Below, piece by piece: positions 2,063 to 6,469 of a stretch of DNA of 64,000 nt. Each line of letters starts with the position of its first letter. The first letter of the stretch is position 1. A program made the translations under genes and the position numbers. A model generated the notes under the pieces. It was given only the letters and a program-made list of their open reading frames with translations, ran no database searches and was not told the DNA's origin. Source of the stretch: Syntrophales bacterium (lineage in GTDB: Bacteria > Desulfobacterota > Syntrophia > Syntrophales > PHBD01); NCBI GenBank assembly GCA_963668175.1, contig OY764159.1, forward strand, positions 1,984,001-2,048,000, in the 5' to 3' direction.

Positions 2063-2677
2063 TCAGGCGCGCTGCACTTCGCTAAGGGCGTCTTCCAGAT
2101 CGACGGCCATGGCGGCCCTGATCTTCTTTTCCACTGCGCCGGCCGTCTGCCGGTTCCGCCGGATGGAGGCAACGGCGGCCTCCGTGACGCCGTAGCGCAG
2201 GATGAGGTCCTCCACGCGCTCGTCGAGGCTGACGACCCTGTCGTGCATCACCCTCTTGTCGGCGTAGTTGACGATTTCCCGTTCCGAAAGGGTGGCCTCC
2301 GGATCGAAACCGGTCAGGATCACATGCTGCTCGACGATCTCGCCGACCCGCGGAAATCCGAGTTCGCGCAGTAGTGTGCCCCCGGTCCGGTCGTGCGATT
2401 CCTTCGTTTCCAGCGCCCGCGTCTTCGTGATGTCGTGAAGGAGCGCCGCGGCCATGACGAGGTCCCGGTCGACGGCCGCGCCGTTGCCCATGTTGTCCGC
2501 GATGGCGAGCGCCACCCGCATGACCTGCCGCGAGTGGGCGACGATGTTCGGCAGCATGCCGTACCGGGCCATGAGGTCGTCGCATTCGCGCAGGTTTGGT
2601 ATTCCGTCTCCGGGAAACATGGATGTGTTCGTTAATGCCTTCTTTGGGACCCGCCTTCCGGGGGGAGCTTCATTCAT
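2063..2677 (-). CDS. HD-domain (HDIG-type) metal-dependent phosphohydrolase
   Basis: Motifs AHSRQV, ALLHDITK, EQHV and NYADKR. The start could instead be 2620. Confidence 0.8.
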   Translation of the reverse strand: MNEAPPGRRVPKKALTNTSMFPGDGIPNLRECDDLMARYGMLPNIVAHSRQVMRVALAIADNMGNGAAVDRDLVMAAALLHDITKTRALETKESHDRTGGTLLRELGFPRVGEIVEQHVILTGFDPEATLSEREIVNYADKRVMHDRVVSLDERVEDLILRYGVTEAAVASIRRNRQTAGAVEKKIRAAMAVDLEDALSEVQRA

Positions 2678-3137
2678 CGGACAGGGGAAAGATCATCACC
2701 CTCGCCGCCCGCCTGCCCAGGAAGCCTAATCTGGCCGCGGCGGCCCTTGTCAGGTCGATAAGTTCGTAGCCGTGGTCCCGGCAGCGGTCGTTGACGGTAA
2801 CGACGACGGACCGGTCGTTGGCGAGGTTGACCACCTTCACGCGGGTGCCGTGCGGGATCGTCGGGTGGGCCGCCGTGAGCTTCCTGTGGTCGAAGACCGC
2901 GCCGGAGGCCGTCCTTCTTCCCTGATAGCGCTTCCCGTAATAAACGGCCAAGGCCTTTACGCCTTCCGGTTCCTGCTGCTTTGGAGCCGCCTTCTCCTCC
3001 GCCTCGCCCGCTTCGACCTTTGCCGGTTCCTCCGCCCGTACGGGGCTGCCGGCGACCGCGAAGGCCAGATGGCCGATCAGCAGCAGCCCCAGCACATGTC
3101 TCGTCGTCTTTTTCAATGCCATCGTCCTCTCAAGCAC
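2670..3137 (-). CDS. rlpA: RlpA-family septal ring lytic transglycosylase (DPBB domain)
   Basis: Signal-peptide-like N-terminus, then YYGKRYQGRRTASG, LTAAHPT, VVTVNDR and IDLTRAAA. The start may be ATG 3122. Confidence 0.8.
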   Translation of the reverse strand: MLERTMALKKTTRHVLGLLLIGHLAFAVAGSPVRAEEPAKVEAGEAEEKAAPKQQEPEGVKALAVYYGKRYQGRRTASGAVFDHRKLTAAHPTIPHGTRVKVVNLANDRSVVVTVNDRCRDHGYELIDLTRAAAARLGFLGRRAARVMIFPLSDE

Positions 3138-3333
3138 TAACAGCTTGTTGAAGAACTCGATTATGAACCCCCTATGCAGGGGGCATACAGGCTGCTTGCC
3201 CCTTTCAGGGGGTTCAAAAACGTCCAGATGTAAGGTTTATCCCCTTTAGGGGACGCGCAAGACCCCCTGCGGGGACGCAACCCCCTATGCAGGGGGCACG
3301 CGCGACAGATGGACTTTTTTCAACAGACTGTTA
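3138..3333. mobile_element. MITE-like non-autonomous element with imperfect terminal inverted repeats and internal CCCC-n-GGGG palindromes
   Basis: Left end TAACAGCTTGTTGAAGAA versus right end reverse complement TAACAGTCTGTTGAAAAA. Exact 20-bp repeat AACCCCCTATGCAGGGGGCA at 3166-3185 and 3279-3298. No ORF. Confidence 0.7.
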
Positions 3334-3480
3334 TCCTCCTTCAAAACGGTCCCGCCTGTCAAGCCTTTCCTGCCCTCGGCGCCGCGCAGTCCTCTGTAAA
3401 TGCGGCATATAACGGGTAATTATGCGTTCATCCTCGGCGCCCGAAGTCCCCGCCGTGAATGTGTCCCCATGATATACCGA

Positions 3481-3535
3481 AATATTGCTTGACAATACAA
3501 TCTTCAGATAGTACATACAATACTGTCGACAATAA
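3481..3535. promoter_or_regulatory. AT-rich promoter region with TTGACA and a near-palindromic operator-like site
   Basis: TTGACA at 3489-3494, repeated ACAATA, and ACTGTCGACAAT at 3522-3533. Lies between divergent rlpA and the small ORF at 3667. Confidence 0.45.
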
Positions 3536-3666
3536 TCAGGACATCAAGGCGGTCTCCCCGGACCGATACAGGGGCCGATGGGAGGAAAGCGCCATAGATA
3601 CAGGTACTTTGGTGGATATCCATATTCAACCGGGTCGGTTCCGTTGGGGCCCCAGGGAGGAAAACG

Positions 3667-3813
3667 ATGTCACCCAGAGCATACAGAAGGTACTACAAGG
3701 CATTGGACCGCATCAGGTATCTCGGCGGGAATGCTGCGGGGCGTTGCCGCCTCCGGTGGTCCATTCGCGAATTCGGCTATGAAGCAGCAATCCTCCTTCT
3801 CATGACCGAATAA
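3667..3813 (+). CDS. 48-aa small basic protein, unknown function
   Basis: GGGAGG RBS 6 nt before ATG. Translation MSPRAYRRYYKALDRIRYLGGNAAGRCRLRWSIREFGYEAAILLLMTE. Followed by hairpins at 3850-3900. Confidence 0.5.
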   Translation: MSPRAYRRYYKALDRIRYLGGNAAGRCRLRWSIREFGYEAAILLLMTE

Positions 3814-4234
3814 CCTTCTCCGTACATGGCGTTCCTCCTTCCGTCGGCCCCCCTGAATTGAAACAGGGGTGCGGCGGGCCGGGAGACGGGCTTTTCCCGG
3901 GCGGTTGCCGGATGAATCATTTCCATCGGATGTGTAGGAAATGCATCACGGCCTTCATCGCTTCGTCCGCAATCGAAAGAGGAAGCAATAAAGCCGCAGC
4001 GACGGCGGCGGATATTTAGAATAGTTCGATAATATTGATCTTTTATATAAACGGTGTGCGGACCGGGTGTTTACGTGTGTCTCGTTCGTGTCCGTCGTCC
4101 GGCATAGAGCGCATGCAGACTGTCCCTGGGTATGAATCAAATAAGGCAGGCGGGAGAAGGCAGGAGAGACCCATATTGAATATTAATCAGCAATATCCAT
4201 GTGATATGCTTGCAAAGGGGCGCAGGGTCCAATC

Positions 4235-4250
4235 TGGCACGCCGCTTGCA
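4235..4250 (+). promoter_or_regulatory. sigma54 (-24/-12) promoter
   Basis: TGGCACG-CCGC-TTGCA is an exact match to TGGCACG-N4-TTGCW and follows an AT-rich tract. Confidence 0.8.
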
Positions 4251-4260
4251 AATTTTTCAT

Positions 4261-4770
4261 TATAAGAGATGGACGTATCGTTGTCCCCTTAACCCGGCAC
4301 CTTCTTTACAGGATGACAAGCCGGAGGCATCGGATTCGGCAAGCGGCCGGATGGACCGGATAAGGATGAAGCCTTCCGGATTTGTCGGGAAGGGGAGATG
4401 CTCGATAGCCGGATTTACAGATTTCTCCACTCTGCGGCCAGCCGCAGATCAAACCATGGGACCAGGTTTGTTCCACCTGGTCCTCCTCATGGTTTCCCGG
4501 CCGGACAGGGACCGCATCGGACCTGGATCTGCCGCACACGTTGACGATGTTGTAAAGGGGTGCCGGAAGGAGTCGCACCCGATGATCCGAGTGGGATACA
4601 GGGGAACACGGGGTAAGCGTACAGGCAGCCTTTACGTAGAAATTTTCGGAAGAATTGTGCTTTATCACAACTGGACCGAGTAGAAGAGACTCTCATAAAC
4701 GGTGGCAAAGTTTTCTTCTGCTCTAACATAGGGACCGGTCGCCATAAGCCGGTCCCTCCTCTTCTCTTCT
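4261..4770 (+). ncRNA. Candidate sigma54-dependent structured ncRNA, GGA-rich (possible CsrA/RsmA-binding)
   Basis: Bounded by the sigma54 promoter and a 9-bp terminal hairpin (4730-4757) with a pyrimidine tail. Has a long-range helix 4294-4310/4551-4566, several local hairpins, 24 GGA by hand count, and no recognisable protein. Confidence 0.5.
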
Positions 4771-5212
4771 GAGCATAACTGCCTTATACGCCCATCCACG
4801 TTCCTTCATCGCGGAAAGAGATTGCATGTCCGTTTCTCCGCCGGGCGCTTCCGCAGACTGCGCGGGTTCCCACGGGAGAAACCGGCCTTTATAACCCTGC
4901 GCCTGCGGGAGGAGAGCGGCTTTCGGCCTGCTTCCGGGAGGCTTATGCGGTGAAAAAAAGAGACACAGGATCTGCGTGCGGACTTCGGGCCGCCGACGAA
5001 GCCGGAGCGGTTTTCCTGCCGCCCCGGATGGAAGGCAATACCGGGACGGGCGGCCTGCCTCAAGCCCGTTCCGGACGCCGCCCGAAAGATTGAATCGGTA
5101 AAACGGCCCGCCGGCGGGAATCAACAGCCCGCGGGCCTGAGCAAGGAGGGGAGTTCGTGCAAGGGGCACGGACCCACAAGAAAAGAAGAACATAAACCCT
5201 TGGAGGAAAGAG

Positions 5213-6469
5213 ATGAGTAAGAGAGAAGCTGTTATTGTTTCAGCATGCCGGACGCCCGTAGGGTCGTTCGGCGGAACATTGAAGGGAGTGCACGCTTACA
5301 AGATTGCCGCGACGACGATGAAAGAGGCGATCGGAAGGGCCGGAATCCCGGCGGATATCATTGACGACGTCCGTTACGGCTGCTGTCTTGAGCCGTACGA
5401 TGCCCTGAACATCGCCCGCGTGGCGGCGCTGGAGGCCGGTATTTCCGACCAGAGCACGGCAGTGACGATCAACCGGGTCTGCATATCGGGAATGGAAGCG
5501 GTCGTATCGGGGATGGCGATGATCGAGGCCGGCCTGGCCGACGTCATCCTGGCAGGCGGCGTGGAACATATGTCGGGCGTCGCCTACGCGGTGCCCGGTG
5601 CGCGCTGGGGATGCCGCCTCCAGAGCCAGAGCTTCGACGACATGATGATCGAGGCCCTGCACTGCGGCTCCAAGCTGCTGCCCGGGCCGGAGAAGGGCCC
5701 CTTGAAGGAGGGCCTGCCGATCGATCTGTATAAGGGAAAACCATACATCATGGGCCATACGGCGGAGTTCGTCGCCCAGATGTACAACATCAGCCGGGAG
5801 GAGATGGACGAAGTCGCGCTTCGGAGCCATAACAACGCCGAATGGGCCACGAAGGAAGGGGCGTTCCGCGACGAGATCGTTCCGGTGGAGGTCCCCCAGA
5901 AGAAGGGGAAACCGCCGGTTATGTTCGACAAGGACGAACACTTCATGCCGGGTCTCACGATCGACAAGCTGGCGGCGCTGCCCCCGGCCTTTATTCCGAA
6001 AGTCGGCAAGGTGACGGCCGGCAATTCTTCCGGGCTCAACGACGGCTCGAGCGGCATGGTGATCATGTCGGCCGACAAGGCGAAGGAGCTGGGCGTTGCG
6101 CCCATCGCGCGGATCAAGGCCGTGGGATACGGCGGCTGCCATCCCTCCGTCATGGGGATCAGCCCCGCCCCGGCGGTCAGGTCCCTGATGGGCCGTTCGG
6201 GACTCCGGATCGCCGATTTCGAGCTCATCGAATTGAACGAGGCCTTTGCGGCCCAGTACCTGGGGGTGGAGAAGGAGCTGGGCCTCAACAGGGAAATAAC
6301 GAATATCAACGGTTCGGGAATCGGCCTGGGCCATCCGATAGGATCGACGGGATGCCGGATCATGGTAACGCTGCTTCATGCCATGAAGAAACGCGGCAAG
6401 TCCCTCGGGCTCGCGGCGCTTTGCGGCGGCGGCGGCGTGTCCATGGCCTGCGCTCTGGAGATGATGTGA
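5213..6469 (+). CDS. Acetyl-CoA C-acetyltransferase / thiolase
   Basis: Catalytic motifs NRVCISG, NEAFA, GHPIGSTG and LCGGGG. GGAGG RBS. Confidence 0.95.
   Translation: MSKREAVIVSACRTPVGSFGGTLKGVHAYKIAATTMKEAIGRAGIPADIIDDVRYGCCLEPYDALNIARVAALEAGISDQSTAVTINRVCISGMEAVVSGMAMIEAGLADVILAGGVEHMSGVAYAVPGARWGCRLQSQSFDDMMIEALHCGSKLLPGPEKGPLKEGLPIDLYKGKPYIMGHTAEFVAQMYNISREEMDEVALRSHNNAEWATKEGAFRDEIVPVEVPQKKGKPPVMFDKDEHFMPGLTIDKLAALPPAFIPKVGKVTAGNSSGLNDGSSGMVIMSADKAKELGVAPIARIKAVGYGGCHPSVMGISPAPAVRSLMGRSGLRIADFELIELNEAFAAQYLGVEKELGLNREITNINGSGIGLGHPIGSTGCRIMVTLLHAMKKRGKSLGLAALCGGGGVSMACALEMM

Follow-up and report, generated by a model that had tools for sequence, protein, structure and literature searches.

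A candidate sigma-54-driven noncoding transcription unit of about 500 nt in a Syntrophales genome

The element described here lies in a 64-kb window (the whole stretch of DNA that was analysed, positions 1984001-2048000 of contig C1) from the complete (100%), single-contig, 4.57-Mb genome of a Syntrophales bacterium with a G+C content of 55.8%. Inside a gap between two genes, an exact sigma-54 promoter is followed by about 500 nt that show no sign of a gene and that end in a pair of predicted hairpins. We read this stretch, tentatively and with a probability of about 0.45, as a lineage-restricted, enhancer-dependent noncoding transcription unit of ~500 nt (4261 to ~4765; positions are counted from the first letter of the window unless the contig is named). 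The reading is carried by a promoter match that is perfect and rare in the genome, by the lack of a coding signal behind it, by the predicted hairpins, and by a 3′ module that is conserved in a metagenomic relative and has paralogues in the same genome. The original prediction had described the element as a sigma-54-driven, terminated, noncoding transcript of ~500 nt and as a possible Csr/Rsm sponge; the first description remains the best reading of the sequence, whereas the second fails because csrA is absent from the genome.

In the scheme that we favour, a bacterial enhancer-binding protein would activate sigma-54 RNA polymerase at 4235-4250, and transcription would start near 4261 and run through ~420 nt without coding capacity. 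The 5′ domain of the transcript would fold and be clamped by a helix between 4284-4310 and 4551-4605, and the RNA, ~500 nt long, would end at a conserved 3′ double hairpin composed of SL1 (4678-4723), SL2 (4730-4757) and a pyrimidine tail. It would most likely act by base-pairing or protein binding through its conserved parts, namely the GGUGGC loop of SL1, the internal hairpins and the C/U-rich 3′ tail, and it would have to do so without CsrA, Hfq or ProQ, since none of these was found in the genome. That the promoter fires, that transcription terminates at SL2 and that the RNA is a regulator is what we infer from the features laid out below.

The sigma-54 promoter and the gap behind it

The exact sigma-54 promoter that had been claimed is indeed found at 4235-4250, where TGGCACGCCGCTTGCA agrees perfectly with the consensus. 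Exact sites of the form TGGCAC-N5-TTGCW number 11 in the genome, this one among them, and the perfect score for the 16-mer consensus is reached at three sites in 4.57 Mb, again including 4235-4250. Thirteen of the 15 top-scoring sigma-54 sites fall in DNA left non-coding by the gene caller, a crude one that overlooks atypical genes and counts 20% of the genome as ‘non-coding’. Because 11 of these 13 best non-coding sites have a same-strand gene start 24-191 nt downstream, such sites are probably real promoters for the most part; of the other two, one is followed by a gene start at 544 nt and the site at 4235-4250 by its first co-oriented gene, a thiolase, at 963 nt. The genome encodes rpoN (sigma-54), and a Sigma54_activat search gives 30 matches above the cut-off, 26 of which score at least 143 bits, so that a -24/-12 promoter, rpoN and enhancer-binding proteins, which any sigma-54-dependent noncoding RNA requires, are all present at the level of sequence.

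The claim that no recognisable gene stands behind the promoter also holds, for no open reading frame (ORF) in the gap looks coding by codon usage, Pfam or protein searches. Twelve of the 13 gap ORFs have no Pfam match at E values up to 0.1 and the remaining one has a match below the cut-off. Codon scores are negative for all nine gap ORFs that were scored (-0.04 to -0.56 per codon, one of the nine being scored at three start codons), against +0.40 to +0.54 per codon for four flanking genes. Protein-coding capacity, which a noncoding RNA should lack, was thus not detected between promoter and terminator. The gap is bounded by a DPBB/RlpA-like gene on the minus strand (2670-3137) and by the thiolase gene on the plus strand (5213-6469).

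Two further arrangements were seen around the promoter. Activators or IHF might bind 40-120 nt upstream of it, at a direct repeat, AAGGCAGGCGGGA / AAGGCAGGAGAGA, and at a palindrome rich in A and T (4143-4169, 4173-4196); a comparison with other sigma-54-like sites found no motif that matches. On the minus strand, a sigma-70-like promoter (GGGACA-17-TATAAT, 10/12 matches, 4287-4259) stands back-to-back with the sigma-54 site, and a terminator-like hairpin (4009-3993) follows ~250 nt beyond it, suggesting a possible divergent short transcript.

Predicted fold, repeated words and the 3′ double hairpin

Direct reading of the sequence recovers every element that the original prediction had listed. 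The long-range helix pairs CCGGCACCTTCTTTACA (4294-4310) with TGTAAAGGGGTGCCGG (4551-4566) through 8 + 6 perfect pairs on the two sides of a small internal loop, in which two U.G pairs are possible, and it is extended by TCCCCT/AGGGGA at 4284-4289/4600-4605. Hairpins are present at 4431-4448, 4451-4495 and 4678-4723; the sequence for a further one at 4372-4393 is there too, but the minimum free energy (MFE) structure pairs 4321-4328 with 4371-4379 instead. Folding of the whole of 4261-4770 gives z -3.8 on the plus strand, a value that 0/100 shuffles reach, and z -3.05 on the minus strand, and the long-range helix is retained in both the MFE and the centroid structure with a pair probability of ~1.0. 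In these models the fold signal is concentrated in the domain 4284-4606 and in the 3′ part 4607-4772, the latter with z -3.07. The internal hairpin at 4451-4495 (GGGACCAGG...CCUGGUCCUCCUC) resembles the terminator hairpin. An origin of the 16-bp inverted repeat as a miniature inverted-repeat transposable element (MITE) was considered and dropped, there being no second copy in the genome.

The domain is also marked by its words. The 24 GGA that had been reported are all counted in 4261-4770 (510 nt), where dinucleotide shuffles give 15.8 +/- 2.6 and reach 24 in 0 of 500 trials; this count places the region in the top 0.33% of 510-nt windows of the genome, and it is strand-asymmetric (24 GGA vs 10 TCC). 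The excess is carried by GGACC and (G)CCGGA(U), not by the A(N)GGA type that CsrA binds. Compared with shuffles, A.GGA occurs 6 times where 3.6 are expected (reached by 67/500) and AGGA 3 times where 3.5 are expected, against 7 vs 1.1 for CCGGA, 5 vs 1.0 for CGGAT and 9 vs 3.8 for GGAT. GGACC, with 6 occurrences and 0.41 expected from non-coding k-mer frequencies, is the sole k-mer to survive correction (Bonferroni 0.005). CCGGA is again strand-asymmetric, with 7 occurrences to 1 of TCCGG, and four CCGGAT within 100 nt are found nowhere else in the genome, the chance estimate being ~0.3 such clusters genome-wide. Since GGACC forms the core of the terminator hairpin's 5′ arm and likewise that of the internal hairpin 4459-4484, the word excess may partly reflect repeated hairpin arms. 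Among 35 GGA-rich non-coding windows, four have an upstream sigma-54 site scoring at least 14.0, which by our estimate is only weakly above expectation once intergenic bias is allowed for. Elsewhere in the genome, C1:1481742-1482220 holds another sigma-54-like site, TGGCACGGAGCATGCA, and behind it a purine-rich leader of 448 nt that contains 19 GGA and 8 CGGA; the start of the product encoded behind that leader resembles a membrane chemoreceptor.

At the 3′ end, the closing hairpin 4730-4757 proposed in the original prediction has 10 pairs, seven of them G-C. Its tail, UCCUCUUCUCUUCU, consists of pyrimidines at 14 of 14 positions, on the plus strand only, and contains 8 U. The form GGGNCCGG...CCGGNCCC is shared by hairpins at 12 distinct places of the genome. 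Several of these stand behind genes and carry, on one strand, a tail rich in T or in pyrimidines, some with cleaner T-tracts, and SL2 accordingly has the sequence of a local form of a terminator. A covariance model built for SL1 + SL2 (R1) matches four places in the genome, three of them full copies and one SL2 only (Table 1), and the two paralogous full copies sit roughly 190-240 nt behind protein genes. SL1 + SL2 is thus a small family of 3′-end modules and not unique to the candidate RNA; it could be a shared element of 3′ untranslated regions (3′-UTRs) or a family of small RNAs (sRNAs) derived from 3′-UTRs. The four versions of SL1 all fold, with z from -1.7 to -3.5, and carry GGUGGC in or beside the loop. 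The SL2 copies differ by pair changes of U.G to C-G, A-U to G.U and one G-C to A-U, with one compensatory pair among the four copies.

A metagenome scan returned one true homologue, contig L004, which begins at the equivalent of 4647 and therefore does not include the 5′ domain. Its identity to the window is 88% over 4649-4762 (100/114 columns) and 90% over 4671-4762, then 47% over 4763-4949, 84% at 4950-4992 and 21% beyond. The gene downstream of the module in L004 is not a thiolase but encodes a 94-aa protein without a Pfam match, which speaks for independence of the 3′ module from the thiolase. In SL1, the differences 4687 A>G (A-U to G.U) and 4712 U>C (G.U to G-C) keep their pairs and 4691 U>C breaks a terminal pair, while the SL2 difference, 4739 U>C, replaces U.G by C-G; three of the four stem differences thus keep or improve pairing, and the wobble exchanges work only on the plus strand. 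The block 4950-4992, 84% identical as said, is preceded by an A-tract in both sequences, and neither of its strands gives a fold signal; a role as promoter or operator is possible.

A second relative, P0003, is a 63-aa singleton ORF call on a 1,821-nt metagenome contig, and was one of three matches in a HMMER search of 1.84 billion representatives. It aligns with 4398-4424 in one frame (5/9 residues) and with 4423-4503 in another (24/27), with nothing after 4503, which reads as homologous DNA with a frame shift and not as a conserved protein. Selection thus appears to be visible on parts of the unit, the internal hairpins (4423-4503) and the 3′ module.

Table 1. Coordinates of the candidate unit, its parts and the matches to the R1 model (window positions, or contig C1 where named)
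Feature	Position	Strand	Basis or remark
Gap without a credible gene	3138-5212 (2,075 nt)		ORF list, Pfam, codon scores
Sigma-54 (-24/-12) promoter TGGCACGCCGCTTGCA	4235-4250	+	direct reading; predicted start ~4261
5′ domain closed by helix 4284-4310/4551-4605, with the CCGGA(U) and GGACC word cluster inside	4284-4606	+	z -3.6
Two internal hairpins (4431-4448; 4451-4495)	4431-4495	+	both in MFE
SL1, conserved hairpin with loop motif GGUGGC	4671-4727 (hairpin 4678-4723)	+	folds in all 4 copies
SL2, terminator-type hairpin GGGACCGG-loop-CCGGUCCC, then pyrimidine tail UCCUCUUCUCUUCU	4730-4770	+	terminator scan
R1 match, candidate locus	4671-4772	+	118.9 bits
R1 match	C1:3527828-3527930	-	87.6 bits, behind MCP gene
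R1 match	C1:1526536-1526635	+	39.3 bits, ~190 nt behind pyridine-nucleotide-disulphide oxidoreductase/rhodanese gene
R1 match, SL2 only	C1:3500648-3500747		32 bits, behind HpaB-family gene

Weighing the rival explanations

Several results weigh against a functional RNA. BLAST finds no homologue of the candidate region in 338 other genomes of the order, nor in a set of 40 relatives, and with no homologue in either set a real covariation test of the 5′ domain is impossible. The interior of that domain (4311-4550) folds in an ordinary way (z -1.45, equalled by 14/200 shuffles), as do three 300-nt sub-windows, whose z of -0.5 to -1.0 places them between the 24th and the 36th percentile of 113 background windows of non-coding DNA. 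Of 13 substitutions listed from close variants, nine fall at predicted paired positions, where six break the pair and three keep it; the partner base is uncovered for two of the six, and six further differences lie outside the listed set. The tail after SL2 is C/U-mixed and not a clean U-tract, and the SL1 + SL2 module, because it also stands behind protein genes, may be a generic 3′-end cassette and not a working part of the RNA. No gene for an enhancer-binding protein is adjacent, the nearest within the window being ~28 kb away, and a search with 9-mer patterns found no upstream activator motif in common with 83 other sigma-54-like sites.

The close variants come from two contigs, a 354-nt one from a wetland metagenome that covers 4510-4845 with 13 differences, and a minor variant in the source sample that spans 4286-4434 and shows 12 differences, six of them listed. 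No RNA data set containing the region turned up among the sequencing runs, a result that is silent on expression. As a test of structure this variation is weak, and the 5′ domain gains no support from it. The idea that 4347-4403 and 4607-4770 are invariant among strains was withdrawn, the list of differences being partial. Other apparent relatives were set aside as well: a 26-nt BLAST match in the relative G015 is an unrelated terminator hairpin, a pattern scan of genome contigs gave one chance match inside a coding region of a Longimicrobiales metagenome-assembled genome, and a weak tail match of genome G316 to P0003 (E 0.003) is taken as chance. Used as a query, P0003 found no second genome in the order. 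Within the family only G002 shares the flanking HD gene; its neighbours there are others, so that synteny is absent, and a sigma-54 site is lacking. Conservation appears patchy, and the element seems restricted to one narrow, species-level lineage.

Such a distribution is what would be expected if a sigma-54 promoter formerly linked to a gene, together with a generic terminator cassette, had been left on either side of drifting DNA whose transcript, if any, has no function. This orphaned-promoter explanation, which we consider doubtful yet the most serious of the rivals, also draws on the lack of conserved gene order in the closest relative that carries the flanking HD gene, on the six of nine substitutions that break predicted pairs, on the ordinary local fold and on the fact that clusters of at least five GGACC per 510 nt are otherwise found almost only in coding DNA. 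The same gap moreover holds a multi-copy repeat. On the other hand, the promoter has stayed perfect, protein searches gave no homologue, and a six-frame tblastn comparison of the gap with its own genome, run as a pseudogene test, uncovered no protein remnant, returning only the repeat at 3138-3340. Drift would also hardly be expected to leave the patchy conservation described above, in which L004 falls from 90% to 47% identity and the match to P0003 stops at 4503, nor the 16-bp long-range helix with its strand-asymmetric words. As for the repeat itself, it is ~200 nt long and has more than 20 further partial copies in the genome at 62-94% identity; its contig depth in the source runs is many-fold that of the flanks, and it looks like an intergenic repeat family of the repetitive extragenic palindromic (REP) or MITE kind.

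Promoter and thiolase are co-oriented, and between SL2 and the thiolase start there is neither a sigma-54-like site scoring above 11 of 15.5 nor a sigma-70-like site. The whole might therefore be a 963-nt 5′ leader, with the sigma-54 promoter serving the thiolase and SL2 acting as a conditional terminator in an attenuator. An alternative pairing is available for such a switch, as there is 91% complementarity between GGAUGGACCGG (4349-4359) and the 3′ arm of SL2, whose 5′ arm is mimicked by the six GGACC words; the candidate anti-terminator, however, lies 389 nt away from the terminator. The leader would also exceed in length those at all the others of the 13 best non-coding sigma-54 sites, Rfam gives no match to a riboswitch or leader family, and in L004 the module precedes a different gene after an intervening stretch in which identity drops to 47% and then 21%. 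We therefore hold a thiolase leader to be unlikely.

The noncoding unit that we prefer could in principle work on a protein. In the boldest version, an enhancer-controlled RNA of ~500 nt with strand-specific GGACC/(G)CCGGA(U) repeats would titrate or scaffold an RNA-binding protein of a kind not yet described, and SL1-SL2 would be a common stability or targeting signal. Nothing supports a sponge for some other RNA-binding protein, and we treat the idea as a long shot. If it were true, the GGACC/CCGGA(U) RNA would be a functional analogue of CsrB or CrcZ with another motif and another partner.

That the unit is instead a gene for a small protein, either the 110-aa ORF 4351-4683 or a 33-aa ORF at 4582-4683, is very improbable. 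An open frame of 160 codons (4201-4683) does run across the candidate, with its stop codon within SL1 and shortly ahead of the terminator, and the 33-codon ORF has a good ribosome-binding site, AAGGAG, 9 nt upstream, but there is none before 4351. The codon scores of the 110-aa ORF (-0.10 per codon) and the 33-codon ORF (-0.11) lie under the 1st percentile (-0.03) of 110-codon segments of training genes, and the long frame as a whole scores -0.17. Neither ORF has a Pfam match, and the 110-aa ORF has no homologue in an index of 5.8 billion proteins; the two HMMER matches besides the frame-shifted P0003 are tandem-repeat proteins aligned in 13 and 15 stretches, which we regard as artefacts. By our own reading, the differences in the long frame are mostly non-synonymous, 5/7 of those listed for the wetland-metagenome contig (4541-4606) and 4/4 in the last 11 codons covered by L004.

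The Csr/Rsm reading of the original prediction, a sponge titrating CsrA through repeated loop-exposed GGA, is hardly credible any longer, even though GGA is enriched and both length and terminator recall CsrB/RsmZ-type RNAs. PF02599 has no match in the complete genome while it was detected in 3/3 control genomes, and FliW was likewise not found by Pfam. The same search is positive in 10 of 40 relatives of the order and in none of 8 other genomes of the family, so CsrA is detectable in the lineage and the family appears to lack it. Absence of csrA from the genome had been named beforehand in the original prediction as decisive for the sponge role, which is thereby refuted. Nor are the GGA presented as had been claimed: in the MFE structure they occupy 2 of 12 apical loops and only ~5 of 24 are mostly unpaired, and the ANGGA type is, as shown above, not enriched. 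Rfam 15 yields no match at the gathering score over the 64-kb window, and at E values up to 10 the stretch 3100-5300 gives 10 sub-threshold matches to unrelated families, with no Csr/Rsm, no CrcZ and no riboswitch or leader among them. A CrcZ-like Hfq sponge is excluded, as Hfq (PF17209) has no match in the complete genome and 4261-4770 contains 0 AANAANAA motifs. ProQ has no Pfam match there either, and judged by these searches none of the classical global RNA-binding regulators looked for (CsrA, FliW, Hfq and ProQ) seems to be encoded in this organism. Richness in GGA alone thus predicts a Csr-type sponge poorly: in the present case other words account for it, and the genome lacks the partner protein.

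Relation to known noncoding RNAs and meaning for the lineage

CsrB, CsrC and RsmX, RsmY and RsmZ are GGA-rich RNAs of several hundred nucleotides that end in a terminator hairpin, and CrcZ is roughly 400 nt long. The candidate is likewise several hundred nucleotides long, GGA-rich and closed by a terminator hairpin, but it differs from the Csr/Rsm RNAs in having no CsrA to bind, in GGA that are neither of the ANGGA type nor loop-exposed, in its sigma-54-type promoter and in the lack of an Rfam match. In Pseudomonas and Azotobacter, CrcZ and CrcY are transcribed from RpoN-dependent promoters with CbrB as the enhancer-binding protein, and they sequester Hfq-Crc through A-rich motifs (PMC6292655). 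The candidate resembles them as a stand-alone noncoding RNA with repeated short words and a sigma-54 promoter (in its case assigned by sequence), but its genome has no Hfq, and it lacks the AANAANAA motif, an adjacent gene for an enhancer-binding protein and an Rfam match to CrcZ.

Two other cases show the same kind of control. NrsZ of P. aeruginosa is described as a processed sRNA induced by NtrBC (NtrC/RpoN-dependent) (PMC4253122); sigma-54 with enhancer control of a noncoding RNA is the likeness, whereas no homology to the candidate was detected, nothing matching in Rfam. In Desulfovibrio vulgaris, the response regulator DVU0679 targets an sRNA without an assigned function, annotated as Dv_sRNA2, and further unannotated sRNAs were deduced there from predicted sigma-54 promoters (PMC3333781). 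Dv_sRNA2 likewise belongs to the former Deltaproteobacteria, in their sulfate-reducer/syntroph part, and is a noncoding target placed by promoter prediction; but it lies directly downstream of its own regulator gene and was seen on tiling arrays, whereas the candidate has no adjacent regulator and is known from sequence alone. In sum, the candidate shares its promoter logic with sigma-54-driven noncoding RNAs and is no member of the CsrB/Rsm or CrcZ families, since their defining features were checked and not found.

A narrow literature search found no report of such an RNA in Syntrophus-like bacteria, which does not prove absence. To our knowledge, post-transcriptional control in syntrophic bacteria of the Desulfobacterota type is almost unexplored. 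The candidate is apparently species-restricted, and its value lies mainly in being a target for transcript mapping; if it is transcribed, it would be among the very few sigma-54-dependent noncoding RNAs proposed for these bacteria.

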